A stretch of DNA of 54,990 bases, filler included, from Sluysia triapertura (lineage: Eukaryota), in NCBI GenBank assembly GCA_046118255.1. It is 4 parts of 4 records of this genome, joined end to end, with 100 filler letters (N's around TTAATTAATTAA, not from the genome) between each part and the next. Parts side by side here need not be neighbours in the genome. Positions count along the whole stretch, not along the records: positions 1 to 14,986 come from JBJNIA010242436.1; 3 more parts are not named here. One strand, 5' to 3'. A program made the translations under genes and the position numbers. Within the stretch, counting starts at the first letter, position 1. Each line of letters starts with the position of its first letter. Below, piece after piece: positions 1-49,209 of the stretch. A model generated the notes under the pieces. That model was given only the letters and a program-made list of their open reading frames with translations. It ran no database searches and had not been told where the DNA came from.

Positions 1-590
1 CTTATAATTTCTAGTCTGATTTCATCATCATATCCATCCTCATCATCATCATAGCCATCACTATCATTATTATTTCATTATCATCATTATTATAATAGAT
101 GTTCATTTCATTTTCTCCATGATGTTTGAAATTCTACATTACAATCCACAAGCATACAATATAATTTAATCATTTTGTCAAATAATTTAAGCATTATATT
201 AAAACAATTAATAAATTTATTGAATCGTTCTTAACCAAAAAATTTTTTATCGATCATTTAATTACAATATACTAATTAATGTCTAAAAAGATTGAGTTAA
301 ATGACAAAAGGATTAAATTATATGAAAAACCTTATAATTCCATTATATGACTAATTTCATTTAATAGTTAAATGAAACTATATGGCTCCTAGTTATCTGT
401 ATCTTATGCAACCTGTTATTATTTTCTTATGTTGACTCGTTTTTTTTCAAGGTGTTTTTGGTCTTCATAGAACATTCATTTAATTTGTTATCCAAAGATT
501 TTGGAATGACTTCAGAGTAAATTACACAGAGTTTTAATAATAATAATGTAAAAACTTGACAAGCATTTATTAGACTAACTGGGAATTCAA

Positions 591-785
591 TCTGACCACT
601 GAGCTATCAGCCCCTTCTTACAATTTTGTATTATTATCATAGTCAATTACACTACTATTATTCTATGGGACTTTAGGCCTGTATCTCAACATATCTCACC
701 CAGTTCAATTATTTTTGACTTCAAACATCTTATAAATCATTTAATTCAACATCAGAAGGGTATTCGATTTGTGAGCTCACCAAAA
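591..785 (-). repeat. Truncated copy of the tRNA-containing repeat (internal spacer plus 5' half of the tRNA-like module)
   Basis: Reverse complement reads TTTGGTGAGCTCACAAATCGAATACCCTTCTGATGTTGAATTAAATGATTTATAAGATGTTTGA...AGGCCTAAAGTCCC...GGGGCTGATAGCTCAGTGGTC, collinear with 14301-14470. Confidence 0.75.
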
Positions 786-1806
786 AAGCATGTATTAATA
801 TATAGTGTTTAAAACTCTTCCCTCTTTAGTGAAGGAAGGTCTTTTCATTTTCATTATAGGAATCAGGGATTTCTCTATAAACTTTGTACCTTTAATGTGG
901 TCTTGCAAAGTTTCACCATAGTCTTTAGGCCTTCACTGTGGACTTAGAAAGCTTCGCTACAGTCCGTCTAACAATTTTATTTCATTATAGTCAATATTAC
1001 TATCACAATCGCTACATACTTACACAAATGAAATTGAGCATAGAAATGAAGAACTTTGTAATAAGTTACTACAAATAAGTTCAGACTTTGAATCTCAATG
1101 ATTACACAGTATGACTTCAATGGGCTTCTAAAGGATCATTTGTAATTGTTTTCCAGTCTTCCTTGAAAACTTTCTAAAAATATATTTGTAACTCTTTTTA
1201 TTGCTTTGTTCCAAGAAAAATAAAATAAACCATTTATATTTCAGGAAGAAGAACAATCAACTAGGGTCTAATAAAAAGTACAATGGATCACGAAATGACA
1301 AAAAGAGTCTTAACAAAGACATCAACTTGATTCATAGAGCTGAAGAAGTTACAAGTTCGCTATTATTTTTATTATTACTATTATCATTATATTATTATGG
1401 TTACTATATCACTATATTACTCTCTCTGTCTTAGATTATCGAAAACACATGGTAATATTCATCATATTAGTATTGCATACATTGAATGTCACATAACCTG
1501 ACATAATTGACAGATGTTGCGTTCTTGTAAAGTAATAACTTAACGGTCAAAGATAAATAAAATAGGTACCCCTGTGATTTGAAAATGGAAAATTCCGAAG
1601 AAAAATTGATAAACTTAAAAAGGAGAGATGCCAAATATAAACAACAGGTTATAACACGGTGCAATCAATGAAGTTGCTGCTGCATTGTAAGTAATCTGGT
1701 CTCACTATAAGTAGAATTTGACATACAGCACAAGCTTAGTAGAGAGAAGGTAAAATGTGTGCCGATGTTTCTTGAAAAAAGAAAACGGAAAGATCATTCT
1801 GACAAT

Positions 1807-1960
1807 GCAGCTCAAAGAAATTCTAATAGCATACCTAAGGGAACAGCTGTGTATTGTAAAAAGATGATTATAGAAATTTTTATTCCAGCAATTCAATCAA
1901 AATTTCCGAAAACCTATAAAAACAAAACAATTTAGGTACAGCAAGATAATGCAAAACAGG
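1807..1960 (+). mobile_element. Tc1/mariner (DD39D/plant-mariner-like) transposase remnant
   Basis: Manual translation AAQRNSNSIPKGT...YCKKMIIEIFIPAIQSKFPKTYKNKTI*VQQDNAK resembles the 'AKRSSKNRPxGT...LIEKVIPAIKxKWP...IxIQQDNA' block of this subgroup; in-frame stop. Confidence 0.65.
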
Positions 1961-2097
1961 TTTTTTTAGTCCACCTAATAAGTACCATTTATATCTGTTA
2001 AGATGACACTCTATTAGGATTTTAGAAGCAGATATGTAGACGTCGAATATACAATTTTGTGAGTTGGTAAGTACTTCGTAGATTGTTGCAAATTAAA

Positions 2098-2480
2098 CTA
2101 GCTGTTATGGTCTAGCGTACAAATTATTTGATTTTAGAAAGTTAAAACATTATAAATTGAGCTAGCATTCTTAGGGTCTAGCAAACAGATGAGTAATTTA
2201 ATTAATTGTTTAAAAAATGATTAAATAAGTATCAATACTTATAAGATTTATTACGAAATCTCAAAATATGTAGCTATAAAATCGATATATACAACAAGAG
2301 TGTCAACAATTATTATAATAATAACCAGGTTAAAACTACACTTAAGGAATACAATCCCTTATGAGTTTAACTTTACAACTTGACCTACCCGTTAAGGTCT
2401 AGGATTACTATTAATATTTTGACCTCTTGATTAAAATGAAGACGTGAAAAACTTAGAATAAATGATCTTACTTTTGAACA
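2098..2480. repeat. Hairpin-array element, locus C (degenerate)
   Basis: CTAGCTGTTATGGTCTAG (2098-2115), GCTAGCATTCTTAGGGTCTAGC (2161-2182), CCTACCCGTTAAGGTCTAGG (2384-2403); same architecture as 35876-36179 and 38334-38672. Confidence 0.5.
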
Positions 2481-2718
2481 TGAATTTTCTTTAAATTTGT
2501 TGAAATTGTCACGAAGATTGGAATTGTCTATTTCAAAGACGTTCAAGTGTTTCAATCACTTACAATGTGTAGACATTATACATAAGGATTTTTGATTAAA
2601 TTCAACCCTTTTAATAATTATACATACGTATTATAATTGGCTTACTGATACTTTCTTAAATTTAGTTAATTTTTAATGTTGTATTATTACGGTAACTTTT
2701 TCCATTGTTACTTTCAGG

Positions 2719-4247
2719 AACGGAAAACGAATCTGACGAAGTAATTGAATGGGAAAATGAAATTTTGGCATCATTTCCAACTGAAGATTTGTCCGCTATT
2801 TCTGCACGTACTGAACAATTTAAAGAAACTTATTCTGCTGCTGCTATTGTTTCTTCTGCAAAAGACATTATCAATCGCCGTAATTGTAATTCCGGGTCCA
2901 GTAGCATCTCGTCTGGTATCGGAATCACTAATAATAACATGTCGTCTACTTTACACAACAAGAGACCATCTCCCGATTATTGGAATAATTCAATTTCGAA
3001 AGGTTCTTTTTGAATTTTGATTGGTTTAATTTTTGTGAAATAAATGCCTTTAAGATCAATCAATTCAAACTGAATCAAATTGATAATTACATTTTCCATT
3101 AGAATTTCCATTAATGAACACTTAATACAATACATAGACTCAATTTATATGTTATTTTATTAACAGGTTTTTATTCGGACAATGGATTTCCTCCAATGGA
3201 AACTTCCAATCCAATGCAGGGATATGGTTCGAAAATGGATAACAAATCAAAACTAGGGATTAATTATTTATCGAATAATTATGCATTATTTCCAAGTCAA
3301 CATGGATATCAGGATTTAGAGTTTGTATTTTTTATTATTCAATAATAACTGCATTTAATTCGATATATTACTGATAAATGTGCTAACAGTAATTATGGTA
3401 TTATTATTACCAGGGCCGAATCCACGGTTTTCATCGCCCGGGCAAAACAAAATTTGGTGTCCTTTATACAAGAGTATACTATTTACTGCGAATTAAAAAA
3501 ATATTTAAAAAGGCAAAAAAGCAAAATTACACAATAAAAAACTGTGTAACAAATTTATTTATTTAAAAAATAAATAGTTATTTACTTACAAGCGATACAA
3601 CATATGAAATAACATAACGAGTGCATTTGAAGTTATAGAGATGTACAAGATTTTTTGTAATGCTATTTGTCAAAAATTCAATAAGATAGTTAATTAAATT
3701 AATTTTTTTGAAAATCAGTTTGTAAACAGTTTACAAGATTAAAATAATTAGCGTTGTGATCTTTATTTGGTATTAGTAAACAAAAAAATTTATTGCTTGC
3801 TAAAAATCGATTTTAATTTATAAAATCTAAAAAATAATGATTGTAAAAAATATTTTATTTTTATATCGGCGCCCGGGAAGTCGCCGACGTAATGATGTTT
3901 CAGTAATTATTTGATAGTAGATATTAGCGCTAATAAAATGATAAAAGAAAAATAATTTTCGAATATGTATTTTATAGTAGATGTTATCCATTATTTGAGT
4001 GTCATAGAACACCTACTACAATATGGTTGATAATTTGGTTCAGAGTAAGCTTGTTTATGATATTGATTTTGATAATTCTCCACATTCTTTTATGAAGCAA
4101 GTGATGGATGATAATGATGCCGATTTTACTGAGAATAAGAATGAGAAACCTGACTATATAGTTGATCATGCAGAAACTAATACGTTTAAAAGAAAACCTG
4201 ACAATTTAGCTGTTCCGAATCCAGTACATAGAAATGTCATTGATTAA
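2719..4247 (+). CDS. Probable 3' exons of an unidentified spliced host gene (Ser/Asn-rich)
   Basis: Higher-GC open segments after acceptor-like sites (ttactttcag at 2718; taacag at ~3166) give GTENESDEVIEWENEILASFPTEDL... and GFYSDNGFPPMETSNPMQGYG..., plus ORF 4023-4247. No family recognised. Confidence 0.4.
3411..3890. mobile_element. Possible hAT-type non-autonomous element/MITE in an intron
   Basis: Begins CAGGGCCG (hAT-like terminus); GC-rich GCCCGGG motifs near both ends flank an AT-rich core. Confidence 0.3.
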
Positions 4248-4982
4248 TCGAGATTCATAAAGTTTAATTTATGCATTACTATCTGATAAGTTTATTAAAT
4301 TTAAAAAGTTACCAAAAATTGATAGATTATTAATAAATAAAACAAAAAATATAAGGATATTGTGACAATGTATATTGTGATAAAATAACAATAAAATTTT
4401 ATTATAATGAAAACCGAACAATAATAATAAAATGTGAATATTATAATAAAAACATTTTATTTTGGGAATTTATTATACTGAAATGAATAGTTTATGACTG
4501 AAAATAAAGTAAAAAAACGTAATAGAAATCCTTAATTTCGATTTTAACGACGAACACCAAAACTTCAACGCTATCAAAGCTGAATTATCAACTTACCCAC
4601 CGATTGAGATTCTGACTTGTAGCTACAATCTCATCTTGAATGGTGTCTGCAATAGCAACTACACAAAGAAAATTTCATTTCGCATTCCGACATCAAGAAG
4701 TAAGATTTACTGATACAAATTTTTAAACTAATTTAAAGCTAGTTTTAAACCACAATTTAATATCACGTCAAAACACCTGCATTCATCTTCCTGTTCCCAA
4801 AATCATTCTGTATTTGATAACTAAGACAAACTTAGCTTTAAATTATTTATTTATATCAATAATTTTTAATAATATAAGAGACCCGTATTATATAAATATC
4901 GCTTTCGTACTATAGTCTAATCCAGCAAGTAATTAGGAACTACTTTAAATTATATTAGCTCAATTATTGTTACTCATAAAAA

Positions 4983-5160
4983 ATAGATAAGTTAATAGAT
5001 TTTATTGATGAGAAACTTACACTTTCGATCCAAAACAAGGAAGTTTGGAGAAACATAATTAAAGAAAAAGTGAACCAAAATTCTAGTAAACCGTTCGGTT
5101 GTTTACAAAACAATGTATTATTCGTGATTATATTGTTAGCAATGTTTGGAATAAATAAAA
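4983..5160 (+). mobile_element. Diverged fragment of the Bcl-2/env region of the 15.7-25.5 kb retroelement family
   Basis: Translates without interruption IDKLIDFIDEKLTLSIQNKEVWRNIIKEK...NNVLFVIILLAMFGINK, versus INKVIEFVNKKTKLWVEEQGG*RNIIKGK...NNMLFVIILLVMFGINK at 16765-16993. Confidence 0.85.
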
Positions 5161-5577
5161 TATTTTCTCTGTCAGATACTGAAAATTATATTGAATTCCC
5201 ACAAAAATAATAGTCCAATAAATATCATTTTATTTATAATTATATAATTCGGATGGTACAGAAAGAAAATGGCATGAATCGAAAATGAAAGCTTATAGTA
5301 AGTACAAGGAACTAGATCCAGATTAAGAAAATGTTGATTGATTTGAACAATCTTGTGAAGTATAACTCAAGAATTTACATTTTAGTGTGCAAAAAAGATA
5401 TTCAAGGTTTCGTAAGTTTGTTCAGAATGATGGTGATATAATACTCGAACTTGATTAATCATTAACGTTTCTGCATTCTTCTTTTTCTATCTGCGATTAG
5501 AAGAAACCGCCAAAAGAAGAGCAAGAAAAGAAAATGATTTATTTTTCAATAAATAATAATAATAATTTCAAACTCAC

Positions 5578-7225
5578 TTCTTCGAATTTCATTGAATTGA
5601 ATGATTTCATGAAAGTAATAAGATCTGGATAATCAGATAACAGAACCAACTGCACAAATACAGACTTGGTAGATGGATTCTTCAACGATATATACCGAGA
5701 AGAAAAGTTTCCAATTTGAGTTAGCGGTAAACTAACACAGTTCGGTTGTTGTTGTTGGTGTGATGTCGAGTTGGACATCGTACTAGAGCAACCGTCGTTT
5801 TCGCCATCAAAATACGATGCGTCTTGCGTGTTCAATAGATGTGGCCAAGTTAGTTTTATATTCAAATTACTAATGAATCCTTTAGCAATATTTGTATCTA
5901 ACTGAATGGTAACATTGAAATCATTGTCATCATTGGACACCAAAGAATCGTAGTGGTTTTTTAGTCTTTTATAGATGAAGACATCATAGTAAATTGTTGT
6001 ATCATTCAATTTTATCCCCCTTAACCACTGGTATCCGACTAAATTATTTTATTATTATTATTATTATTTAATTACAAATGCAATATTTAAATAAATTAAA
6101 TTAGAAATATTTGATATATATACATTTAAAATCAGTATATCCATATTTACAGTGGTGGCCAAATTATTAGACTAAAACAGGAAAAATATGTTTTTCTTTG
6201 ATTTTCTCAATATTTGCTACCCTGGACTGGAAACTCTCCAGAAAATCTGTGGGAGATTGTCAAAAGGAGAGTTTCTACCCATAAACCAAACACCAAGATG
6301 GAACTAATTGAAACCCTGATAAAAGTATGGCATCATCTGATGATGAGATCAAAGATTTGTGCCCAAGCTCATCCATGGCACGTGCCTTTAAGGATCAGGA
6401 AATCATTGGATAATAAAGAAGGGCAAACAAAGTACTGATATAACAGTTTGTACATATTTGATTGTGTTATCATTCTACATGAATAAAATTTCTGTATGTT
6501 TTGGATCTCAGTATTTTTTTTCCACCATTTTACATTATTTTCTGTGACAACAGCCAGTAGTAAATAAAGCATGTATTTATACACTTTTGATTAATAGTTT
6601 CACAGTAACCCTGAAAAATGGTCTTTAGTCTTCTGATCTTCTATTCCTAGACCTTGGACATATTTCACATTTTGCAGCTGAACTCGTCGCAAAGTTTTCT
6701 TTGATTTCAACGATCAAATGTTTCAAAAACAAACTCCTAGATCTGTATATTTTCAACATAAATTCAAAGCAATAATTTCGAATATTGTATTATATTATAT
6801 TGTTGATTGCAAGATGAGTTTAAAGAAATCTTATAGCATTACAAATCAAATACAACAAATACTAACTGTTTGTGGAAAGAGAAAACCCCACATAACACGG
6901 TACCTTGCCATTACTCGTACTACTGCTTAATCTGAGATAAGCAGCCGAAGCAGATCCAGAAGTAGATCCAGAGAATTTATCACTTTTCACAAATGCTTCT
7001 GACATGGGATCTTCACAGTTGTGATGAGAACGGTAACGGAAAATTCCTACTCGAGTTCGTGCTCCATTCGGATTTATAAGAATAGGAAGATTACGACCGT
7101 GCTGTACTTCAAATTGAATGCGACTATCATTTGGAATGAAGTGGACATTTACCAGTTCCAGATGATGTGTATAATTACTTTCTATTTCGGCTGGCAATTC
7201 GGAATCTTTGGTCTGAAAAGCAGAA
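5578..7225 (-). CDS. TMEM131: TMEM131-like transmembrane protein, internal exons (~7225-6865 and ~6039-5578)
   Basis: LTWPHL...LPLTQIGNFSSRYISLKNPSTKSVFVQLVLLSDYP matches my recollection of the TMEM131 'LSWPS..FPLT...ITLENP..PVYVQ' block. The upstream exon has a DxRIxF segment and CYVG. GTGAGT donor at ~5577. Confidence 0.65.
6149..6540 (+). mobile_element. Tc1-like transposon remnant (internally deleted) in a TMEM131 intron
   Basis: CAGTGGTGGCCAAATTATTAGACT terminus preceded by TA; ORF 6214-6438 WTGNSPENLWEIVKRRV...LIKVW resembles the Tc1 'WPxNSPDLNPIENLW' motif. Confidence 0.8.
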
Positions 7226-7389
7226 AATAAATTATTCACAAATCTTCAATTATTATTTCACCGCAGATTTGATTAAGAAGTGACACTTTATTGCGACCTT
7301 AAATTGCGTTTCGGAAAATCAAATCAAAAAATATTCGCAAACTTAAATAAAAATTAGATATCAAAAACGACAAATTTAAGAGGTATATT

Positions 7390-7760
7390 TAGTATTTACA
7401 AATGTTCCAAATGTGCATTTTCAATACAAGCACATCTTTTGACAACACTGCGACATACTTTCTGGCAAGTTTCCTTCGAAATGTGGTTCGAATACTTTGT
7501 TTTAGTTGGTCAGTTGTCCTAGGCTTTCTTTAGAACTCCCCATAGAAAAAAATCAGGCGGTGTCAAATCCGGGTATATGGTAGGCCATTCATCATCCAGG
7601 AAATGTTTCATCAAGCCATTGTCAAACATCTTTGGTGTAGTGCGCAGGTGCTCCATCTTGTTGAAAATGAAGGAACTCATTAACAATAGGAAATACTTTG
7701 GTCTTCAGTATATCAAGGAAACGTTCACCATTAACAGTTACTTCAACTTTAAATACAAGA
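7390..7760 (-). mobile_element. Tc1/mariner-superfamily DDE transposase remnant
   Basis: Minus strand gives FIFQQDGAPAHYT and EWPTIYPDLTPPDFFLWG (cf. WPPRSPDLTPLDFFLWG). Confidence 0.8.
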
Positions 7761-8744
7761 TTAAACATTGTCGACCTACTCGGTACAGGTATTCTGAAGT
7801 TTGCTTCTCATCTTTCTTCAACATACTTGTAGCTAGTCCTTAAAGAATGAGGGTCCAAAAGTGTATGATGAACAAAAATCAAGCAATGACGTCCAAACAA
7901 AATCAATTATATCTCGCAACAAAAGTCATTCAAAAGACTACTATTCGCAAAAGGAAATGAATAGTAGCGAAGATAACATAAAATGATATAAAAGATGAAA
8001 TTACATTTGTCGTTACTGATATCTAATTTGTATTCAAGTTTGCGGTTCGGCTACATTATTTATATATAATGTTAACAAAAGATCAAATATATATAATATA
8101 ATATAGTACAAGATTTAATGCTCTTCATCATCTAAAATGTCACATTCGCTTAAACTAACATAATCACCATCTTTTTTCAGTATTTGAGCCTTAATAAATG
8201 CCCTTTTCCATTGGCAATAATTGCGAAAAGTTTCAATCTTCTTCTTGCTTGAGCCAATTTCTAATCAAATAATTTGATTACATCATATTTCTCGGCCGCT
8301 ACCTGATTCCCTATTTCTTGGCTACTTTTAATTTAAATGCTGTATCAAACCTGCTTTTATGCAGGGAAGAGGGACCGTATAAAAAAATCGCATAAAAATA
8401 TACCTAAACTTCGAAAATAGCTTTAAAATATTTGGTTTTGCAAAACAATCCAAAAAATATCGCACAAAAACAGGTTTAACTGTATATATATAAAATCAAT
8501 ATATTTAATAAAGTATAAATTGTAAATAAATTATAATACGAAAATGGACCACAATTAATCAATATTATTTTCAATTCCGAGTAAGATTATTTCAGTAAGT
8601 TTTGTAACGTTCTCATTTTAATAGAACTAAATTATACTTAAATTCCCAATTTTTTGCATCCTGGATCTTAATGGCTAGGTTAATTTTAATTCAAAATCAT
8701 TGAGTACTAAGAGATTACCATATTTTAAGTACCATATAAATTGT

Positions 8745-8746
<2 letters not shown>

Positions 8747-8813
<67 letters not shown>
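8747..8813. repeat. (TAT)n microsatellite
   Basis: Directly visible. Confidence 0.95.
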
Positions 8814-8816
<3 letters not shown>

Positions 8817-11800
8817 TTTGAATAGAAATTAGAAAATATGAGTTATTTTTAGAACATTACTGTTAAAATTAAAATATATAATATTTTTGGGATTGGTGAA
8901 AGATAAAGGTAGACATAAGGATAACAGAATAAAATAATGAGCATCATTGAAGAATTGAAATATGATATTATGATTAATAATAACATACTTGAATTAAAAT
9001 AAAAGAATGAGAAATATGAAGAAATAACCATTTAAAATATAAAAGTATATTTGTTAATTAACTTAATTAAAATTTGTTTAATTTGGTAATTCAATAAATA
9101 ATATTTGTTCATGATATAATAATATTGGATTTATTAGTATTGAGTTTTATTAGTATTTTTAATGATGAAGTCAACGTTGATAACGTAAAAATTAGTTATT
9201 TAATTAATTTTTAATTTTATTTAATTAAAGTTAAAGTAAAATATGATCCGATGTCTGAGTGTTAATAAAGTATATATCAAATTGATACCTATAAAGATAC
9301 TAATTCAAATATTTATTCAACTTGACTCAAAACAAATTGTACAAAAGTTTCCTCTGAGAAATAAATTTATTATTTCATTAATTTTATTCTTAAATTAAAT
9401 TGACAAATTATGTTATTAGTACAGTAGCATTGTAATAATGATTTTAAATTTTCATTAGATGCTATTAAAACGATGAGGAGATTGTTATCTTTAGATAATT
9501 AAAATGAGAATGAATTTGAACAGAGACGGAAATTCAATCAGTAAAATTGGTGGGATTATTATCGACTAAAAGAGAATAGATAGTTCAATTTCTAATCATA
9601 TAATTGCTATATAAGCAGTTACATTTTTGCATAGATTTTGAAGTAAAAAAAAGACAGAGATGAGAGTTAAGGAAATAAGACTTTCTAGCTATAGGGACGC
9701 TGATTCAGTTCATCAGTGGATAATGGTGAAACTGAGGTTATTTCTTTAGCAATCATCCAAAATAAAATAGTTTAGTATAAAATGGGAATAAAGGTTGGTA
9801 ACGTGTTCAATATTGATTATATTTTGTATTAATATGTGTGCTAAAATTTAAATAAGTTGTATCACTGCTGGTTGTGATTTGTCTTTAAAGAATAATTTAC
9901 ATTTTTATAAAGAATAATTTGTATTATTGTTGTTATAAAGAATATTTTGGTTGTAATCTTGTGATGATATTAAAGAATATATCGAGATTTTGAATTTATT
10001 TAGTTTGCTGTGGTTTTCTTAAAGATAAACCCACGGAAAATAAATTTTAGGGGGGTTCCGGTTAGAGTAAACGTCTTACAACTAGTAGTTAGCGCTTCAG
10101 TTAAGAATTTTACTGTACTAGCTAACACGTTCCTAAAAAATTTGGTGCGAGGGTCTTAATTTTAAATAGCACAATAAATAAAAAACTCAATTAACTTTTG
10201 AATTATGTTAAACAAAATGTACGCGTATATTAGGTTATGGTATAACATAGAAAACAAAATAAAACCTAATTATTATTTTATGATCCAAATCCTCTTGGGA
10301 TATTCGATCTAATTGCTTTCAAAATTTAAGTAGAAAATGTCCCCTCAATATATAGGGTTCTTTACAATATTAAATATAAAAATTGATTTTTCCTGCATTT
10401 TAGGATCTTGACTTATAAAAATCAAAATCGTCTTAACAATAAAATAAAAATCATCTTATAATAAATCCGATCTGTATGTTCAATATATTGTCATGAAGAA
10501 AATCGGTTAAAATTACAAATGGCGCTGAATATATAAAATGGCGATTTTCATTAAACTGATGGAATGTTCTGGAACATTTTAGAAGCTTCTCTTCTATTTA
10601 TAGAAGCGAATTTTTTTAGAAATTTTATTTTCTTTTTTGGAAAATAAACATTTTCAAAGTGTTTTTAGACATTTATAAATAATTTAAAAGCATTTTAAAT
10701 GGTCGTGATGACAATCTAACAAGTTATTGAGTTTTAATTTAATAATTTTGGAAAATAAAAGTATTAAAAGATACAACAATGTGATAAATAATTCCAGTGA
10801 TATAATTACGATATAATTGTGTTGGTCAACCTTTATAACTATTAAATTTTATAAAAAATTAAGTTTTCAACACTTTAAAATTCACATATCTATCTCCTAT
10901 ACACTCACAAAACAGTTCATCCACCAAAACTAAGTCATACTCACAATCCCATAATATACAAACCACATTCATAACCAATACCATCAATTTACATAAACAG
11001 ATCCATTAAAAACATGCTACTCGCATTCATAACAATCAAACTACAACCACATTCTAAATTATCTACTCGACATCTTCGAATCAATTTCAACCTTTCAAAT
11101 TCATCAATTATTATCACATAATCCCTAACAGCACAAAATACAATACCACTTAAAAACAACAAGCGAACAAATCACATTAGCAACACTGTACAATCAACTT
11201 TCGAATATACTAAAAGTTGTACTATAATTTATCTTTTCGCATTTACTAAACGACACTCTTCTTAAGGCATATTAATCTCAATCAGAAACATAAGTCACCA
11301 TCTAAAAATTCACTATAGCGTTCTGCATTTCTGCATCTGCTATCACACCTTGAAACGTTAATTACACATGTAAAATTTATTTAAACTAATATTTACTTGA
11401 AGATTTTAGCTCTAAACATATTTAAATGTAGTCCAATATGTTCAGAAATCAATAAAATTTTAAGGAAGATTGTGTACAGTTTTTAAAGAATCCAAAAGTT
11501 TATGCAATGAATAAGAACAATAACTATAATATTGTTCATCTTGTTATTACATTCAATTCCATCATTTTTTATTTTATTTCAATTTAAAATATGTAAAGAA
11601 GAAATAAATACAAGAAAGACAGATCTTGTGAAATTTTGGATAATAATAATGATACTAACATTTTGTTATTATTATTATCGCAATTATTATTTTTTAATTT
11701 TAATTTTTCATAAATTTTCAATTAACTTCAATCAGCAAATTATCACCATTTATACTGACATAGTTAATCACTATGTACAAATGAGTGTCAGCATGAATGG

Positions 11801-12084
11801 TGGTTTATCTCTTATCTGTTAGTCCATTATTGTTGGCCATTCAACCAGAATAATAATCATTTTTCTTTCTGGTAAACAATCCTGGTTGGATGGACAATCA
11901 CTGGTCATCTGGTACAAAAATAAAATTTCGTAATAAATAAAATTCTCTTGCTTGAGATTATTATGTAGTTATATGCAGTAATCGAATTGAATTATTTAAT
12001 ACAAGTAAATTGGTAAAATCAGAAATTTTTGAAAAAAAAGAAAAGCTGACAAAGACATGGATGAAAGATTACTAGTTATGTGTT

Positions 12085-13240
12085 ATGATTTTAAACTTAA
12101 TTACATCATTCCGTCAATCTGTAAATGAAATTAAAAGGTTGTTTGAGATAAAGTATGATCCTAATTGCCTAATATCAGATATACTATTGAAGTTTTCTAT
12201 AGTATCAACTAAGAACAGCAGTAAATTATTTAGTTTAGTAATTAAGCAATGTCATTCAATTCTCGTACGTAATTCAGGACACGTAGTCCCAGTTTTAGAA
12301 TGGTTAAAGAAAATGTTCCAAGTTTATAGTTTTGAATCATTGGATCCAATTTATACACAATATTTATTTATTTTTAGTCAAGGAACCATTTCAGTTACTA
12401 ACATCTAACGCTATAACGAGATATATTGTATTTTTCGATACTCGTTTATTTACAGAGATTATGCTTAAAGAAGAAAAGAGTAATAGTATAGTAAATCAAG
12501 TCAATATGGTGGATGAATTTATTATTTTCTTAATCCATTTTCTGAAAGATCACAGTCGTAACAAAGACAATATCGCCGTGTCATTTAACATTTTAACGAT
12601 CGCTTTTAGTTAAGAAAACTTGACGTATGTAGCACAGGATAATCTTTTACTAAATGTTCCACATTTATTCGTATTAGGTAATTATTAACTTTATCATGTG
12701 TTAAATACTAAGGATGCAATAAATATTCATAGTTGTTCTACCCATAATGTAACTAGTCATCATATTAATTTTGATAATGACACTACAGCTATTGATGTTA
12801 TAGTTACATCAAGTGATCGATGTTTCAGGAGTATTCTAAAGTCATCAGGTTTGTCAATACTTTTAAATCATAAAAGAAACACCATTTTTAAAAAGTCTAA
12901 AAAGATAAATTAAATAAATTTGCTTAATGTGTCAATGATATTACTGATAATTGTAAAGACGTTTGTATGAGTATTAGTAAACGCGTCAATGACATAACAA
13001 CTCGCGAATTTTATAACATTAGCACTGAACTTATGCTAGATTTATCCAAGATCGATACTACAGATGTTTTTGCTCTATTGGAAATCTGTTTATTCAAAAA
13101 TAATGCCAAACTTAATTCTGAAGAAGTTAGTTGCACATACTGCCTAAGGTTCCAAGATCCAAATATAAATGCGTGGAATTCGCAAATTTTGTGGTGTACT
13201 AACAACATGATAACTCCAAGGTAAAGTCAAATGAGGTACG
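12085..13240 (+). pseudogene. Cluster of overlapping/frameshifted ORFs of unknown origin
   Basis: Four same-strand ORFs with coding-like composition; no motif recognised. Confidence 0.25.
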
Positions 13241-14189
13241 CAAAGATACGGCAGTAAAATTTAAATTATTTGTGTTGTTTAAAAATAAATAATTTTTAAA
13301 CTTATTATTGTTCTTTTTGATAGACTTTATTAAAATGTTGATTTTAAACTTGCATAAAGATAGTAAACGTAATATTCATAACGAACTTAGATTTAATGAT
13401 ACGAATAAAAATTATAGTTATTTTGATTTCCAAATTAAAAGACTTATCACTAAACGAAATTGTTTTCATTTAAGTTTAACGCTTCAAAACCTAATCATAT
13501 CAAATTTCTCCCAATTAAAATTTATATTACATAAAATAAATCAAAATGAAATATTAAATACAATTAAATAAAATAAAACATTAAGAGTATCTTCGTAATG
13601 CAATGAAATTTATGTTATATTAGTACAAGTACTGTTGTTTAAATGATTTTTATATCGATTCCAGAATTAATTTTGTCAAATCAGGTGAATATTTGTAGAT
13701 ACTAAATTATCAAAGCTGAAATGGGTCCAATTTCCAAAATTGTTCCAAAAAATTCTTTTGTTTTATTCAACAATTCATCAAATATTGTAGTAGAAATTAC
13801 AAATATTAAACCAATATTAAACTTTAGTGTTCTTTAATTTATTTACTTTACTTCCGATCTAAAATTAATTAAATTTCTGTGGAGTCTTTTAATAATTTAT
13901 GTAATTTTTCTTGATAAAATCGATAATAATGCCAGTTATATCTTAGGTGTAAAAATAACGCCCTTTTTACTACCAAAATAAAGAAAAGTAATAAACATAG
14001 AATAATATAGTAAAATGTAAAATTTAAAAAGTTAATGTAAAACTAATAATTTTATAAAAATAAATAAATTCTTAATCAATAACTTTAGAACATCAACATT
14101 ATGGAAAAAAATATGAATAATATATAGTTTAATATTACTAAAGAAAATATAGCCAGAACTATATTATAGAATGTGATTAACTATTATAC

Positions 14190-14525
14190 TGTTTGGATAT
14201 GGGCTTAAGTCAACCATATATGGACTTATTATTGTTAGGCGGAGCGCAGCGAGAGGTCTCTGGTTCGATCCCTGGTCAGTCCATTTTGTATTGTCTAACA
14301 TTTGGTGAGCCCACATATCGAATATCCTTCTGATGTTGAATTAAACGATTTACAAGATGTTTGAAGACAAGATGTTTTATATGTTGGGATATAGGCCTAA
14401 TGTGCCACTTGGTATGATTGACTATTCTAATCTAAAAATTGTTTGACGGGGCTGATAGCTCAGTGATCGTGCAGCGAGAGGTCCCGCGTTCGATCTCCGG
14501 TCAGTCCATTTTATGAATTCTAACA
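14190..14525 (+). mobile_element. Tandem dimer of the tRNA-containing repeat (module - PBS-like - spacer - module)
   Basis: Module 1 TGTTAG...GGTTCGATCCCTGGTCAGTCCATTTT...GTCTAACA (14233-14300), then TTTGGTGAGCCC, a ~140 bp spacer, and module 2 TGTTTGACGGGGCTGATAGCTCAGTG...GGTCAGTCCATTTT...TCTAACA (14440-14525). Confidence 0.75.
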
Positions 14526-14679
14526 ATGGGGAAAAAATTGGTAATGCAGAAGTGATAAAATTCAACATTTTTCATGGATACTATGAAACTATTAATCAAA
14601 AGTGTACAAAAACATGTCACAAAAAATGTTAAATGTTGGAAAAAAACTACTTTCTCCAAAAAATTCTGATGAAAGTAAA

Positions 14680-14986
14680 ATAATAGATAAAATGCTGAGA
14701 TCAAAAACAAACTGAAATTTTATTCATGTAGAATGTGATAACACAATTTACTACCAATCAAATATGTACAAACTCTTGTATCAATACTTTGTTTGCTCCT
14801 TTATGTTATCCAATAATTTTCTGATCCTTAAAGGCACGCCGCGGATGAGCTTGGGGCACATGTCTTCCATCTAGTCATCGTGATGCCATACTTTTATCAG
14901 AGTTTCAATATGTTCTGTCCTTATTGTTGATTTATGGGTAGAAACTCTCCTTTTGACAATCTGCCACATATAGTCTAATAATTTGG
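14680..14986 (-). mobile_element. Second copy of the Tc1-like remnant
   Basis: Reverse-complement match to 6160-6520 (e.g. CTGATCCTTAAAGGCACG, ATGGGTAGAAACTCTCCTTTTGACAATC, AGTCTAATAATTTGG). Confidence 0.8.
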
Positions 14987-15085
14987 NNNNNNNNNNNNNN
15001 NNNNNNNNNNNNNNNNNNNNNNNNNNNNNNTTAATTAATTAANNNNNNNNNNNNNNNNNNNNNNNNNNNNNNNNNNNNNNNNNNN
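14987..15085. other. Assembly gap with TTAATTAATTAA linker
   Basis: N run with a central all-frame-stop linker; identical at 30770-30869 and 43293-43392. Confidence 0.95.
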
Positions 15086-15524
15086 NTATATTAAAACCTA
15101 ATATAAATAGCTTACGTTTAATAAATAAGTATGTTAGTTCCAATTCTTTTATTGATGATCCGACCAAATTTCACACGGTTGTTTCCAATTTATAATGTAA
15201 ACTCAATTCGAAATCCTTGCGACAATCCCAGATAAAGTCTTCAATACCAAATGGATTAATAAATTTATTCTTGAAAAAGATTCAAATCCAACGAAGTATG
15301 TACTGCGAGTATTAAATTCTTCCACAAAAGATTTTTAAGATTTAAAATTTTTATGTTTTTAACTTGTGTGAATCTTATAAAACTGCAAGCTATTTATATT
15401 AAATTCTTTATCAAAATTTATTACGTATTAAAAGATAATTAAATATTAATTTTTTGTTTTTTATAAAAATAAAGTTAATAGACAATTGTTTTAATTATCG
15501 AATAAAATAATCTTTAAACTTGTA

Positions 15525-15612
15525 TCTAATTAATTATTATTTTTTGTACTTTTTAATTAAAACTTTTATCTAATTAATTATTATTTTTTGCACTTTTTAA
15601 TTAAAACTTTTA
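15525..15612. repeat. ~44 bp tandem duplication
   Basis: TCTAATTAATTATTATTTTTTG(T/C)ACTTTTTAATTAAAACTTTTA twice. Confidence 0.85.
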
Positions 15613-16203
15613 ACAATTACATGAAATTTAATATCTACATAATTAATTTCATCTACATAATTTCATAAAATTTAATATCTACACTCCCGAACTATCATTC
15701 ATTGAAGATACAAAGACATTCCTCACCGAATTAGAAAATGATGACGATATCGATAGAAATTTGGATAAAATTTTGAATTTGGACTTAAATATGTTTAATG
15801 CGCAGAGTATTAAAGCAAGTTTGGCTATATTAAGTGAAGCCAGCAATCCTCACCAATACAAAGCATGAAAGTTATTTAAAAAGATTGCACTAACGGAAAG
15901 AAAAAATAGAAAAATAAATGGACTTATCAATATTTTTACGGAATTACCAGTAACCTCTTTGGTTCAAAACATTATTGACATAATAAAATTGAATGACCCA
16001 TCAATTATGAATGTGGATTTATTCTATGACAATAGATATCTAATTCCTACAGATTTCTGAACGATTATGGTTATCCATTAGGAAACCACGAGAAAATAAT
16101 AAAGGCTGTTACTACTAATTATACTGTCGAATACGAAAATTTATTTGAAAATATATCAGAGGAGGAAGTAAATGCAAATTCTCAATCATTCTTAAGACAA
16201 TTA

Positions 16204-16830
16204 ATGGATGAAAATGATGAAGAAGTGATAAAAAATAATGATATTGAAATGGTAAAAAATGATGATACAATAGAGAAACATGATTATATAGTGAATCTTA
16301 ATAAAAACCCACATGTTGAAACAAGTGATAAGGAAACAAATACAATTAAAAGACGGCCTGGTCGACCAAGAAAAAACGAAGAAGATGCATTAGTAACTTC
16401 TAATCCCGCTAAAAGAAATGTTATAGATTTGACAAAGATAATAGACGAAAATGAAGAAGAAATATTAGAATTTGATACAAAAAACATAGTTTACGCATTT
16501 TTATCTAATACGTTTATGAACTTCAGTAAGTATAAAAAATTGTTACCCAAACTAAAAGACTATAAGAGTACAATAGTAAAAATAATAAAACAATTAGAAG
16601 AAAAATATAAGGATAAAGATATTAGTGACTTCATAGAAAATGGACAGTATAAATCAATTATTAATAAGCAACTTAGTAAGGGGATAAATAGAGAAAGATT
16701 TAAAATAATTTTAGCTTATACTGTTTTTCAATGTAGTAAAGAAAGGATAATTGATAAGAATAAGATAAATAAGGTTATAGAATTCGTTAATAAGAAAACA
16801 AAGCTATGGGTTGAAGAACAAGGAGGATAG
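16204..16830 (+). CDS. Retroelement accessory ORF: acidic region, AT-hook and Bcl-2-like domain
   Basis: KRRPGRPRK (AT-hook); FDTKNIVYAFL (BH4-like), IVKIIKQLEEKY (BH3-like), LSKGINRERFKIILAY (BH1-like), LWVEEQGG* (BH2-like; TAG where TGG expected). The interrupted frame extends upstream to ~15690. Confidence 0.7.
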   Translation: MDENDEEVIKNNDIEMVKNDDTIEKHDYIVNLNKNPHVETSDKETNTIKRRPGRPRKNEEDALVTSNPAKRNVIDLTKIIDENEEEILEFDTKNIVYAFLSNTFMNFSKYKKLLPKLKDYKSTIVKIIKQLEEKYKDKDISDFIENGQYKSIINKQLSKGINRERFKIILAYTVFQCSKERIIDKNKINKVIEFVNKKTKLWVEEQGG

Positions 16831-16903
16831 AGAAATATAATCAAAGGAAAAGAAAACCGAAGAAACATCGAATTTACTTACAACTTTATTCGGAAACAAT
16901 AAT

Positions 16904-18870
16904 ATGTTAAACACAGCTATACCACGATTAGGAAATTCAACAAATAATATGCTCTTCGTGATAATATTATTGGTCATGTTTGGAATAAATAAATCTGAAG
17001 CAATAAAAGCCTTTGACTGTAACCAACCACAAATCGGCAGGAAATTCTCATTACTGGATAGAGAAGACTGCCCGGAATCAAGATCAAGTAGAATTCAAAT
17101 AAAAGAAAGACTTTAATGTATATCAAGAAGGAAATCGAATAACAACTCTAGTTAGAAAATGGATGGTTAAAAGATCAGTGGTCATCATAGTCATTCATCG
17201 ATATTAGAGTTACCGTATGTATTAAAACCATTTAAGATTTTACCGAATAATTGTAGAGATGCTTTCGATTAGTCAAAGGAGACAAACTAAGAGTAAGAAA
17301 TAATGAGAAAATTATCTACAACATTAGAACTGCGGAAAATGTATTAACAGATGGAACGTGCGAACAAGGATCTATAGAATACGAAGGAAAAATATATGAC
17401 AATGTTGTAGCTCAAGAAACTTTTGTAGTAAGTTTGAAATCTTTTAATGAAAGTTTTGATATTGAAAAAGGAAAGATGATGTCTAGATCATTAAGTAGAA
17501 TGGATCAAACAAGTTGCGGTACAGGTGAGTCTATTCTGATATATGAATTAGATAAGTTCCAGTGTCCTTTAATATTTTAAAAACAAATAAAATTCAACTT
17601 AGTATCCGGATTTGTTTACCAGAATAATGATGATTTACCAATTGAAGAAATAAACAAAAAGGAACAAGTACAACAAATAGAAACTCCTACTATTATGATG
17701 GCCAGTAGAGAAGAAGATGGATTAATTTTCATATCAAAAGGAACAGTAATAAGGTCTGGAAAAGAAATCACCGAAACTAATTACCAAGGTATTTACTTAT
17801 CTGAGAAAACAATACTGCAAGCCAAAAAAGGAATAGATGCAAAAAATATATAATTAAACAGTTACTTTAATAAGAAGATAGAGTTCTACTATCATCTTGG
17901 ATTAATATCTTTGGAAAAAATTTATCAAATTATGATTGCTCGAGATTGTCAACTGAATAAAGAAATACTGCACAAAATTGGCAGTGGCCATAACAAATCC
18001 TGATTTAGTTGCACCATTGTTACCATTAGAAGGTGTATTTGGAAGACTAATGGGAGAAGTAATATACACTTACAAATGTAACAAAGTAAAAGTCCAATTA
18101 AGACCAGCAACGGAATGCACAAATGAATTACCAATAATATACGGAAAAATAGAAACTTACTTAGAACCAGTAAGAAGGGTAATATTTCCTAGTGATAAAA
18201 TTAAACCAAAGATAATGCATTGTTCAAATGTAATGGCTCCGGAATATAGAATAGACGAAAACTTATGGATTTCACTACCACATAGAACACAAATCAAAGT
18301 ACCGGAAATTATTGGATTAACAGAGTTAAAAGGAAAGTTGAAATTCTTGGCAACAAAAATATACCGCATTCAGGTATGTATACAAGTGAAGACACACAAT
18401 CAGCATGGCGGGAAATACTGTTTCCAATAAAAAGATCAAAAGTATTAACGGATATAGTAGATAAGGCAACAGTAGAAAAAGACGGAAGAATAAACTTCGA
18501 ATTATTGTTAGGACCAGATCACTTTAAAAGAGCCGCACAAAATACACTAAAACAAATTTGAAGTAATTTTCTAATTTTAGGTCAAGCTTTCTCAGGATTA
18601 ATTGGTACTTACATAATTATTAAAGTAATAGCGTTAATAATATCCCAAGTTTTCTCTGTTGTAGGGATTTATACGATTTCAGGATTTACTTGGAGATTGA
18701 TAATAGGTTGCTTCCCATTTTTGGCGAAGTATTTATTACATCATCATGCTAACTCACAAATAAATGCGTTGAGAAAAGAAAGAAGGAGAATGGAAAATGA
18801 AAATGTAGCATTACGGACAATTCAAAATGATGAAAAATAAGAAATTGAAGAGTTAAAGGAAAACCTTAAA
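16904..18870 (+). pseudogene. env: Envelope glycoprotein, chuvirus/herpes gB-like (class III fusion) type; disrupted
   Basis: Signal-like MLFVIILLVMFGINKSEA then IKAFDC...C. The block NPDLVAPLLPLEGVFGRLMGEVIYTYKCNKVKVQLRPATECTNELPI...YLEPVRRVI is typical of chuviral-type glycoproteins. C-terminal hydrophobic segments at 18565-18740 (FLILGQAFSGLIGTYIIIKVIALII...). Confidence 0.8.
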
Positions 18871-18947
18871 AATCACAAAAAGATATACAAAAGGATAATC
18901 AAAGAGATAAAATCTATCCAAATCCTCCAACGGCACCGATACCGAAT

Positions 18948-19421
18948 GTGGTTTATATGATAATATGTGCAAACAATAACTATAAAAATTCCAAGAGGCC
19001 AATGGCTAACGTTAAAATTAATGGAAGAACAATTTTGCCACTTGTGGACACAGGAGCCGTGGCATCACGAATCAACGAAAATCAATTAACAGAAGGAGAA
19101 CGAGGAAACCTTGCAAATCATTTTTCACATCTATCAGGAGTTACTGGAGATGCCATACATATTGTCGGAGTAATGAAAGCTGTATGTGAAATAGGACAGA
19201 ATAAAGTCGAAGTTAAATTAAGAGTAATGAAGCAATGTCCAGAAGATATGATACTGGGGATGGATATACTATCACAATTAAAAGGAGTAATTCTAGATTT
19301 CGATAGTGTTAAACTAATGGATAGTCATTCAAACAGAACAATCGACGATGATGATGTCTACGTTGATGAACCATTATTGTTGCTAAGTAGAACTGAATAT
19401 AATGCCAGCAAAAACAAATAG
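18948..19421 (+). pseudogene. pol: pol: retropepsin aspartic protease
   Basis: VKINGRTILPLVDTGA ... DMILGMDIL. Confidence 0.92.
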
Positions 19422-21085
19422 TTCATTAACTGGCCAAATTATGTTTATAGCTTCGGAAACCAACCAAGAAAAATTGGATATAGGCATTGCAGATTCAATT
19501 TATAATAAGTGCGAAGGAAAGATACCCGTTCGAATTATAAATTATAAGAATGATAATAAATGGCTATTTACAGGAACCAAATTAGGAAGAATTGTTAATT
19601 ATAAAACACCAACACATATTAACGTAATAACCGATACAAAAAATAATACAATAAAATTACAACGGGATATACAAGAAGAGGATTATGGAGAAATTCAGAT
19701 CAATAACAAAAATTTAACCAAAAGGCAGAAAGAACAACTATATGAAGTTATAATCGATATCCAAGAGCAATTTCAAAAAACAAATACTATATCGGAGATT
19801 CTGTAATCATAAAACATGAGATCCCATTAACAGAAGATAAAGTGATTCGAAGAAAACCTTACAGAATTCCTATTTGCAATCAAAAAGAAATGCAAAATCA
19901 AATTGACACTATGAAGAAATCTGGAGTAATAAGGCCGAGTTTCTCTCCTTTTTCATCACCAGTATTATTAGTAAAAAAGAAAGACGGTACAGTACGATTC
20001 TGTATAGACTTTAGAGAATTAAATAAGATAACAAGAAAAGATGTATTCCCACTATCACGAATAGACGAGATGTTAGACAAATTAGGGAATGCCACTTATT
20101 TCACGACTTTAGATTTACAAAGCGGATATTGGCAGATAGAAATAGCGAAAAAGACAAACATAAAACGGCGTTCACGTGCGGAAATGAATTATACGAATGC
20201 AAAAAGATGCCATTTGGTTTAACAGGTGCACCAGCAACGTTCCAACGTTGTATGAATTTTGTACTATCAGGGTGTAAAAATGTCATGATATATATAGATG
20301 ACATTATAATATTTTCAAAGGATTTGAAAACTCACTTGGAAGATATACATAATATCTTAAAAAGATTAGAAGTCGCTAGACTTAAGATAAAGCCTACAAA
20401 ATGTGTATGGGCAGAAGAAAAAGTCGAGTTCTTAGGACACATAGTATCTAAAGATGGCATTAAACCAAATCCAAGAAATATTGAAAAGGTAATTAAGTTT
20501 CCTCAACCTGATAACGTTAAAAAGGTTCAGAGCTTCCTAGGATTAGCTAATTATTATAGGAGGTTTGTTAAAATTTTGCAAAAATTGCACAACCACTTAG
20601 AAAACTTACAAAAAAGGATGTATAATTTAAATGGACCGAAGAACAGACAAAGGCATTTAAGGAACTAAAAGAACATTTAACGACAGCACCAATACTGATA
20701 TATCCGGATGTTAACAAACCTTTTATACTGACTATGAATGCTAGTAATTAAGCTATCGGCGCAATTTTAGGTCAAAAGAATAAAAATAATCTTGAAGCAG
20801 TTATAGCATACGCCAGTCAAAGACTTAACAAAGCAGAAATGAATTATTCAACAGTAGAAAGAGAATGTTTGGCATTAGTATACGCATGTAAATTGTTCAG
20901 ACATTATTTGTTAGGACAAAAAGTTTACTTCTACACTGATCATAAACCTTTAACATATTTATATAATCACCGAGATGAAGTCAGTAGGCTTAACAGATGG
21001 TTCAATAAATTATCGGAATTTAACTTGGAAATTGTTTATAAGCCAGGTAGCTTAAATAATGGAGCCGATTGTATGTCTAGATTGA
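19402..21085 (+). pseudogene. pol: pol: linker, reverse transcriptase and RNase H (frameshifted)
   Basis: SPFSSPVLLVKKKDGTVRFCIDFRELN, TLDLQSGYWQI, MPFGLTGAPATFQR, YIDD, FLGHIVS, FLGLANYYRRFV; RNase H NYSTVERECLALV...YTDHKPL...NNGADCMSR. Confidence 0.97.
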
Positions 21086-21169
21086 CAAATGTAGATGACA
21101 AAGGAAATATCAATTTGATACAAATTATGTCAGTATCGGGAAAAATGCAGAATTCTAAAGAGATTATTA

Positions 21170-22400
21170 AACATCAGAGAGAAGATAAAGGAATTTCGAC
21201 TATTCTAGATGGGTTAGCTAAAGGAACTTTAAATGAATTACAAGCAAAAAGATTAGCTATCATGGATGGGATATTAAGATTCAAAAATAATAAAGACGAA
21301 TGGAAAACTATTATACCAGAATCACTAATTATACCTATTTTAATACAATTTCATGATGGACAATTGGGCGGTCACTTATCAACGAGGAAAACGTTATCAA
21401 GAATTAAAAGTAAATACTATTGGGAAAATATGGAATCAGATATCAGAAAATGGTGCAAGGACTGTTCAATATGTTGTCGACGAAAAAATACAGGACAGAA
21501 AACTAAAGTACCACTAAAACCTATGCCAGTACCATTATCACCAATGGAATTTACCGCTATGAGTATTATGGGTCCTCTTCCAGAAACCATTAACGGTAAT
21601 AAGTATATAATTGTATTCGCGGACTATTTGACAAAATGGCTAGAGGCTTACCCGATGCCTAATCAAAAAGCCGAAGCGGTGGCACAAATATTGGTAGAAA
21701 AGATCATTTACAGATATGGAACTCCTTGAAAATTATTAACAGATCAAGGAACTAACTTTACCAGCGATATAATCAAATCCGTGGCTAAAATCTTTAATAT
21801 TCTTCGAATTTACACATCACTTTACCATCCGCAAACTGATGGGTTAGTAGGACGTTTTAACCGAACTCTTATTAATAGGATTCAATCCTATATGAACAAT
21901 AGACAGACTGATTGGGACTTATATATAGCACCATGTCTTTTTGCATATAGAAGTTCTGCCCATCGAACAACTAATTTCACTCCATTTTATTTAATGTATG
22001 GTAGCCAGTAGGTTTGGAATTGGTTCCTCTAACTTCACAGTACTTGGAGATTCCAGAATATGTAACCACAATGAGATGCATGGAAACAGGTAGGTCTTCA
22101 AATTAAATACTCTCAAGAAATATATAAAGATGCATTCGATAAAACAGCGAAAGAACATACTTTTAAAATAGGCGATGAAGTATTAATAGATTATCCAATA
22201 ACTAAACCTGGTCATTCATCTAAATTACATAAACCTTTTAAAGGTCCTTATCTAAAAACAAAGTTACCGATACAAATGTGTTTGTTAAGGATCCTAATAA
22301 AGTTAATTCTGAAACGTTTGTAGTGCATGTCAACAGATGTAAAGTGGCACCGAAAGAGGAATATAATTTAAGAAATAGAAAAGTACAAAAATCAAAATTG
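21170..22400 (+). pseudogene. pol: pol: integrase (HHCC plus DDE core, catalytically dead) and C-terminal domain
   Basis: HDGQLGGH...CKDCSIC; AMSIMGPLP (D->S), TDQGTNF, YHPQTDGLVGRFNRTL (E->G), TPFYLMYG; VVHVNRCK...YNLR tail. IN after RH is the Gypsy order. Confidence 0.95.
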
Positions 22401-22494
22401 AAAGGATCGAGATAAACCGCCTTCAATTCATGCACTAAGGAATAAACAAGGAGTATTTATGATACATTCTCATGGAAATGACCTAGCTCATATA

Positions 22495-22750
22495 ATGCAA
22501 AATGTGCGGTTTAACGGACGATGGGTTAGAGAAATCGTAGATACCGGCGCTACTATTACTGTGGTTCATAAAAATTTTCTAACTACTTAAACAGACCAAG
22601 TCTAGTAACATATAATGTTAATCAAGCACCTAATGCTATATAGAAGTATTAGGACAATATGTACAAACTTTAGTAAATGTTTGGGATAATAGCCCATATG
22701 AATTAATATTAGGAATGGATGTTATAAACAAATTGGAAGATATGGTTATT
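22495..22750 (+). pseudogene. Second retropepsin-like aspartic protease remnant
   Basis: Manual translation NVRFNGRWVREIVDTGATITVV (22501-22566) and SPYELILGMDVINKL (from 22691). Confidence 0.8.
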
Positions 22751-23084
22751 TACAGTAAATATGGATTAAAAAAGTACCTCCAGGTTCAAACATGATTATA
22801 CCACAACTGGTAGTTCCACAGGTCAGTGATGAGCTAAAATTATATCAAATGCCTGTCAAATCCACCATTACAAGTTCCAGACTTTCCATTACGTGACATC
22901 GCCGAATCTACACTTCATTTATCAGACGTGTCATGGGGATCACCATCAACAATTACATCAGAGAAGAATTCGGATTCAGGAATCAGCTCAGATATTCAGA
23001 ATGTAGTGATGATGACTAAGAAAAAGAAATTGTCTTAATAAAAATCGTTGTGGGAAAATAACTTGATAGCTTTCGATCTTAATT

Positions 23085-25250: not shown

Positions 25251-25328
25251 TAACTTACATATTTATATTGAACAGAATTCATTTTTTAACTAAGTCGGAT
25301 TTAATTTTCGAAACATTTTTTTAACTAT

Positions 25329-49154: not shown

Positions 49155-49209
49155 CTGTGATTAGTAATGTCAAATAACTTTTAATTATTTTTCTAGTGTT
49201 TGAGTATTG

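Follow-up and report, generated by a model that had tools for sequence, protein, structure and literature searches.

The window analysed here comprises 54,990 nt of Sluysia triapertura DNA, made up of four genomic parts joined end to end. The N stretches between the parts (14987-15086, 30770-30869 and 43293-43392) each consist of two 44-N runs around 12 bases. A decayed Ty3/gypsy element, hereafter the main element or main copy, occupies ~15.6-22.4 kb on the + strand, and a fragment homologous to its interior, hereafter copy 2, lies on another contig, on the other side of the N stretch 14987-15086. The features of both, and of the host exon beside copy 2, are collected in Table 1.

Table 1. 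Features of copy 2, the adjacent host exon and the main element
Feature	Position	Strand	Remark
Copy 2, decayed and internally deleted Bcl-2-like/Env junction fragment (end of helix 6, degenerate BH2, short linker, hydrophobic segment, few Env codons)	4980..5198	+	Open frame with its stop
Trp codon at the BH2 position of copy 2	5046..5048	+	Stop at this position in the main copy
Hydrophobic core VLFVIILLAMFGI, 13 residues, mean Kyte-Doolittle 3.25	5115..5153	+	Copy 2
Exon of a TMEM131-like host gene (PF24499), GT donor at 5577 (read from sequence)	5578..5920	-	Upper end approximate
5'-most remnant of the main element	15647..16057	+	No Gag capsid in the window
ORF piece of the main element: acidic linker, AT-hook-like RRPGRPR, Bcl-2-like domain (~16453-16827)	16036..16830	+	Stop at the BH2 Trp position
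Class III Env (PF24664 Monjiviricetes_fusion)	16943..18783	+	Broken by stops and frame changes
Signal-peptide-like segment MLFVIILLVMFGINKSEA ahead of IKAFDC	16949..17002	+	Frame differs from that of the Bcl-2-like domain in the main copy
Broken pol: aspartyl protease, RT (YIDD), RNase H, integrase	18870..22251	+	Ty3/gypsy order

Several features elsewhere in the window were recorded. A repeat dispersed at 594-784, 14246-14530, 31631-31769 and 48998-49157, which carries a B-box-like GGTTCGATCC, is probably a tRNA-derived SINE. Short Gag-like and RT-like remnants, ~30 nt apart at 37151-36806 on the - strand, represent another heavily deleted gypsy relic. On the + strand, a C-type lectin ORF (PF00059, E 3e-8) lies at 46572-47147, and a 624-codon open frame at 43456-45330 has no Pfam match better than E 0.066.

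The pol region of the main element retains the order of protease (18870), RT (19746-20665), and RNase H with integrase (20752-22251). Its Env piece matches the PF24664 profile at 63 bits, above the cut-off, and a hydrophobic C-terminal stretch was read by eye at ~18650-18730. The copy lacks its 5' end, and Gag was not found in it; its 5'-most remnant bears no significant resemblance to the ubiquitin-like part of the related element L001 described below (130 of 500 shuffles scored as well). No MATH, BIR, RING or ankyrin domain was seen in the window, and a scan of 12000-30700 found no paired LTRs. Alignment with a second relative, L002, revealed 14 more stops inside the aligned pieces and 8 frame changes, in env and pol. 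The stop and the frame shift at the junction of the main copy are thus unremarkable and probably result from decay, as the earlier note on this DNA had supposed. Two ATGs lie in the Env frame, at 16904 and at 16949, the latter being the exact start of the h-region; copy 2 has Val in place of this second Met. The main element matched 8965 contigs of run X1, mostly 80-95% alike and spanning the Bcl-2-like part and Env, and is therefore a member of a large, diverged repeat family; X1 may derive from the same source as the window, and no RNA run was among those listed as matching. Among the 16 contig pieces listed, with 9521 more beyond the listing, none bridges position 16828 with 31 letters on each side, a count that is silent on the openness of other copies.

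In copy 2, the frame at 4980-5198 (+) is open over 72 codons and translates to ...KLTLSIQNKEVWRNIIKEK...NNVLFVIILLAMFGINK, with neither stop nor frameshift and with a Trp where the main copy stops, just as previously quoted. Its Trp codon at 5046 aligns with the main-element stop at 16828-16830. Residues 1-34 align with the main frame at the end of the ORF 16036-16830 and past its stop (score 68), and residues 35-59 with the hydrophobic segment at 16943 (score 70), scores that none of 2000 shuffles reached in either case. The corresponding DNA blocks are identical at 66 of 99 and 41 of 54 positions, and copy 2 is homologous to the main-element junction beyond chance. Both homologous blocks share one frame in copy 2, whereas the main element switches frame before the hydrophobic segment. 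The linker of copy 2 is 52 nt shorter, with 63 nt from Trp to NN against 115 nt from the stop to NN in the main element. After GINK, copy 2 probably skips the 48 nt that hold SEAIKAFDC; the match that resumes beyond is weak (FSLSDTEN against FSLLDRED), with 12 of 2000 shuffles doing as well for the 3' part and 51 of 2000 for the whole piece.

A BH2-like motif had also been claimed for copy 2. The last Trp does stand at the BH2 position, but the BH2 Trp and the Gly-Gly are gone: copy 2 reads SIQNKEVW, where the main copy has WVEEQGG-stop and the outside relative P0001 WIRSKGGW. The homology ends at ~4980 and ~5190, with neither BH1 nor more Env beyond these limits, and no further element parts were found close by. 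Given the loss of the BH2 Trp and the Gly-Gly, the shorter linker and the probable absence of the proposed cleavage site, copy 2 is a decayed scrap and a weak witness for the junction. It is most likely non-functional itself, and probably lies antisense within the presumed next intron of the TMEM131-like host gene.

Three sequences from outside the window cross the junction: P0001, L001 and L002, the last two from the same assembly. P0001 is a single ORF of 1582 aa, in which a Bcl-2-like region (52-113; PF00452 E 0.2) is followed by the hydrophobic segment, a PF24664 match (146-761; 304 bits) and proteases. The 2959 open codons of L002 start before the Bcl-2-like domain and run through Env (PF24664, 317 bits), three proteases, RT and RNase H to the integrase. 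L001 encodes Gag with a CCHC zinc knuckle, a ubiquitin-like part (PF00240 E 0.0047), an AT-hook-like motif and the Bcl-2-like domain (E 0.025), and its Env continues in the frame of this domain, past one in-frame TGA. This TGA (3058-3060) lies 21 codons past the BH2 Trp and 7 codons ahead of the h-region; L001 is otherwise open, over 999 aa and then 402 aa up to the contig end. There is no Met between the TGA and AFDC, so L001 has no Env ATG. P0001 is close to L001 (alignment score 228), and L002 matches the ubiquitin-like part of L001 at a score reached by none of 500 shuffles. P0003 begins within Env and does not include the junction, and a scan of 13 candidate viral contigs yielded no relatives.

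The junction is open in two of the three relatives (P0001 and L002), and an Env ATG is conserved in none. The domain order and the open frame are directly visible in these two, as is the junction homology in copy 2. The earlier note had named a conserved stop at the junction, combined with a separate env ATG, as what would count against a Bcl-2-Env polyprotein; the relatives display no such combination, though L001 has a stop. Its polyprotein reading is right, since the parts share one frame in the naturally open P0001 and L002, but it is also already known, the arrangement having been in print for Burro since 2019 (PMC6431247). What the window adds is a decayed member and three relatives, which make the Bcl-2-like/Env junction common to families only ~22-32% identical in the Bcl-2-like domain.

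Some further modules accompany these polyproteins. The relatives carry two to three aspartyl-protease domains after Env (P0001 1059-1541; L002 1207-1939), as compared to one ahead of RT in the window copy, in which a further protease-like remnant lies past the integrase at 22402-22792 (+). Between the second and third protease domains of L002, residues 1585-1771 (frame 2..8878) comprise a second signal-like helix, ~150 residues and a strong membrane helix, a layout suggesting that another luminal module is threaded into this polyprotein. An ORF piece of the window at 23070-23633 (+), whose hydrophobic ends make it look like a signal, an ectodomain and a membrane helix, has no detectable relation to this L002 module (272 of 500 shuffles).

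The domain upstream of Env in the main element and its relatives is probably Bcl-2-like, on weak but consistent matches of sequences and models. When a profile of five natural sequences of the domain (A4) was searched against PDB sequences, the best 60 of 103 rows were all Bcl-2 or Bcl-xL, matched in the BH1-BH2 region with E 0.0029-0.0084; these 60 rows are variants of just two human proteins. The corresponding part of P0001 alone ranked a BCL-2 chain first (E 0.23). The Pfam family PF00452 matched two of the five members, with a best E of 0.011, and L001 reached 15.9 bits, below the gathering cut-off of 31.4; the Pfam search gave no PF00452 match in the window's own domain. Aligned directly, the window domain resembles that of L001 (score 63, 0 of 1000 shuffles), marginally that of P0001 (10 of 1000 shuffles) and not significantly that of L002 (249 of 1000). 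Searched alone, it had no relative among 559 candidates in the longer-protein search, no Atlas match and no Bcl-2 among 8 PDB sequence rows. Its single match in a library of 1.84 billion, a Na/Ca exchanger, was dismissed as chance. In an Atlas search with P0001 1-165, all scores were below 0.9, and the best was a PF24664 cluster.

The structural model of the window domain points in the same direction, although the models are poor (pLDDT 42-45, with 45 for the window domain). With the single-sequence model of the window domain, the fold search returned the Bcl-2 family in six of the top nine and 11 of the 50 matches. The best fold match had Z 5.5 and rmsd 4.3 over 111 aligned residues, and the Bcl-2-family matches among the top nine (Z 5.0-5.5) extend over most of the domain, at values below the tool's level for helical bundles. 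The first four Foldseek rows for this model were again Bcl-2 family, with E at least 1.9 and thus not significant; neither the window-domain nor the P0001 model gave a Foldseek match at E 0.001 or better, and the wide fold search with the P0001 model placed no Bcl-2 chain among its 50 rows.

The domain resembles the cellular and viral Bcl-2 family (PF00452) in its helical pattern, in a BH1-like G-I and a BH2-like GGW, and in the top rank of that family in the profile and fold searches. On the other hand, it stays under the Pfam cut-off, lacks NWGR, and is followed by a short hydrophobic segment and then a glycoprotein. The BH1 signature NWGR is absent from all four copies, which have NRER (window), EDTK (L001), TFNT (L002) and TDSK (P0001); its Gly is kept in none, while Arg or Lys occupies the BH1 Arg position in three of the four. 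The BH2 pattern W-x(3-4)-GGW is complete in P0001 and reduced to GGW in L001 and L002; the main copy has a stop at its last W, and copy 2 keeps this W alone. Since the Gly and Arg of NWGR are linked to BH3 binding in PMC9027176, the absence of this motif makes a classical anti-apoptotic function uncertain.

The hydrophobic core that follows is 11-13 residues long in all five sequences, and its start lies 23 (copy 2), 28, 33 or 59 residues beyond the BH2 Trp, as counted in the four sequences that allow it. On the Kyte-Doolittle scale, the best 19-residue hydropathy of the segment is 1.0-1.6 in P0001, L001 and L002, against 1.7-2.4 for the Env C-terminal helix. The traits of a class III glycoprotein are present, namely a PF24664 match above the cut-off, an N-terminal hydrophobic segment and a C-terminal membrane helix. 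The PF24664 matches start at model positions 3-5, exactly on the hydrophobic segment. Because the model begins right there, the segment looks like, and most likely is, the glycoprotein's own signal peptide. Signal-peptidase sites were judged by the -3/-1 rule. The cleavage previously proposed between SEA and IKAFDC fits it in the main copy, as do cuts after GEA in L001 and TQT in L002; in P0001, however, position -1 is a Met, and in copy 2 the site is probably missing. A rival candidate is common to all four, with Ala directly before F/Y-D-C and an aliphatic residue at -3, and the exact cleavage site is uncertain.

Taken together, we consider it probable that the sequence at 4980-5198 is what decay has left of a member of a high-copy Ty3/gypsy family. 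Gag, a Bcl-2-like domain, a class III Env and Pol share a single frame in relatives of this family, and the hydrophobic segment, most likely an internal signal for Env, would hold the Bcl-2-like part at the ER until a second cleavage. As an internal signal, the segment would insert with its N-terminal side cytosolic, leaving Gag and the Bcl-2-like domain in the cytosol while Env enters the ER lumen. Signal peptidase would cut on the luminal side, after a small residue shortly before [AG][FY]DC, and the C-terminal helix of Env would bring the chain back, so that the protease and Pol end up in the cytosol. Upstream, the Gag/Bcl-2-like product might then stay membrane-bound through the cut signal, perhaps only briefly, and be released by the protease of the element or by signal peptide peptidase. 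Several observations weigh against this interpretation: the in-frame TGA of L001 sits between BH2 and the segment; two ATGs of the main copy (16904 and 16949) lie in the Env frame; the evidence for Bcl-2 likeness does not reach the cut-offs (15.9 against 31.4 bits in Pfam, pLDDT 42-45 and low Z); and the window domain matches that of L002 without significance and that of P0001 marginally.

The earlier note had assigned the segment two roles, as the C-terminal anchor of a Bcl-2-like protein and as the Env signal. The two roles probably do coincide in a passing, topological way, and a lasting tail anchor is uncertain, the core being only 11-13 residues long. That cleavage leaves a lastingly membrane-anchored, anti-apoptotic protein seems unlikely to us. 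The BH2-to-anchor distance in cellular Bcl-2 proteins is similar to the 23 residues of copy 2, and this spacing would suit an anchor, as would the Arg or Lys at the BH1 Arg position in three of four copies. Typical tail anchors, however, have 17-22 residues, a length that the core falls short of, with a hydropathy of only 1.0-1.6 over 19 residues in the three relatives; moreover, the spacing varies from 23 to 59, and the segment matches the start of a viral glycoprotein model. The predicted topology would leave the upstream product membrane-bound at least initially, as in the precedent of PMC7601889, and Burro1 is reported to bear a functional anti-apoptotic cargo, an IAP (PMC13465017), yet NWGR is missing from all four copies, and its Gly, never kept, is tied together with its Arg to BH3 binding (PMC9027176).

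The stop of L001 could also mark a point of regulation in some members of the family, with the balance between Gag-Bcl-2 and Env-Pol set by a leaky stop or by an Env start of its own. We judge this quite improbable. L001 is open but for the single TGA 7 codons before the h-region, and a Met marks the h-region start in the main copy; however, P0001, near L001, is open at the junction, no Met follows the L001 stop, and the Met position is occupied by Val in copy 2. The RNA 3' of the L001 stop is unexceptional as well, no unusual readthrough-type structure being found there (z 0.36; 125 of 200 shuffles fold as well). One contig cannot tell mutation or assembly error from design, and the TGA may be a mutation, an error or a readthrough site. 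As for copy 2 itself, we give hardly any credence to a domesticated or selected mini-gene whose frame was retained on purpose. Its 72 codons are open and the frame survives the 48-nt loss, but no start codon precedes the hydrophobic core, stops lie on either side, BH2 is degenerate, BH1 is absent, and the fragment is probably antisense in a host intron.

An internal Env signal with a passing tether, the reading we prefer, invites a further proposal that we put forward only tentatively and hold to be rather unlikely. If these elements captured a Bcl-2-fold domain and the Env signal tethers it to the ER, one cut by the host signal peptidase could yield both a luminal fusogen and a Bcl-2-like protein that protects host cells or forms the matrix layer of enveloped particles, with a leaky TGA, as in L001, switching between soluble and tethered forms. 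Were the Bcl-2-like domain membrane-anchored and active, this would be a retroelement using one segment for envelope biogenesis and for host-cell survival. In the literature searched, we found neither the threading and cutting of the polyprotein nor the Bcl-2-like domain as a second anti-apoptotic cargo beside the Burro1 IAP; the junction may already be covered in the primary literature on Burro (Grohme 2018; Lee et al. 2026) or its supplements.

The window element is built like Burro in its described architecture. Burro, or GYPSM1, comprises giant gypsy-like LTR retrotransposons of planarians (PMC6431247, citing Jurka 2007 and Grohme et al. 2018). Its ORF1 is described as Gag, a Ubl/SUMO-like part, a BCL2-like motif and Env in frame between gag and pol, followed by PR and RT; Env matches mononegavirus fusion glycoproteins, and decaying copies with stops and frameshifts occur in Dugesia japonica (PMC6431247). 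The Burro section of that paper makes no mention of topology or signal peptidase. The order of a BCL2-like part and then Env recurs in the window, where it is broken, and in the open frames of P0001 and L002; the window copy differs from Burro in having lost its 5' part and in being broken, and the scan of 12000-30700 turned up no LTR pair. Burro-type elements are marked by a length of > 30 kb and an ORF1 of ~5000 aa with RING, SMC, MATH, BIR and ankyrin domains. L001 is more compact than Burro1, since no RING, SMC, MATH, BIR or ankyrin Pfam family was found in its 999-aa Gag ORF.

Errantiviruses with a GAG-ENV-POL order and an HSV/gB-type Env have been reported from Platyhelminthes, Nematoda and Bryozoa, six such elements of Schmidtea mediterranea measuring 14.5-18 kb, and their Env ectodomains are flanked by a signal peptide or two membrane helices (PMC13524379). 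They resemble the present elements in placing Env between gag and pol, and the Schmidtea Env rows share VYQE, SCxTGES and TNYxGIYxS with the window Env, as compared by eye only; 'bcl' and 'polyprotein' each have no occurrence in the main text of that paper. Anakin is an LTR element that likewise carries a Monjiviricetes-type (chuvirus) glycoprotein (PMC7642597; PMC12440569). It differs in belonging to another superfamily, BEL/Pao. We know of no Bcl-2 domain in Anakin.

A parallel to the proposed junction comes from flavivirus anchor-C/prM and HCV core/E1, in which one hydrophobic segment is both the tether of an upstream cytosolic protein and the signal of a downstream glycoprotein; either the viral protease or signal peptide peptidase subsequently takes the tether off (PMC7601889). 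Both are RNA viruses unrelated to the present elements, and the comparison is one of analogy only. By this analogy, the segment of the element most likely works as flavivirus anchor-C does, as an internal Env signal that would tether the upstream protein until a second cut.
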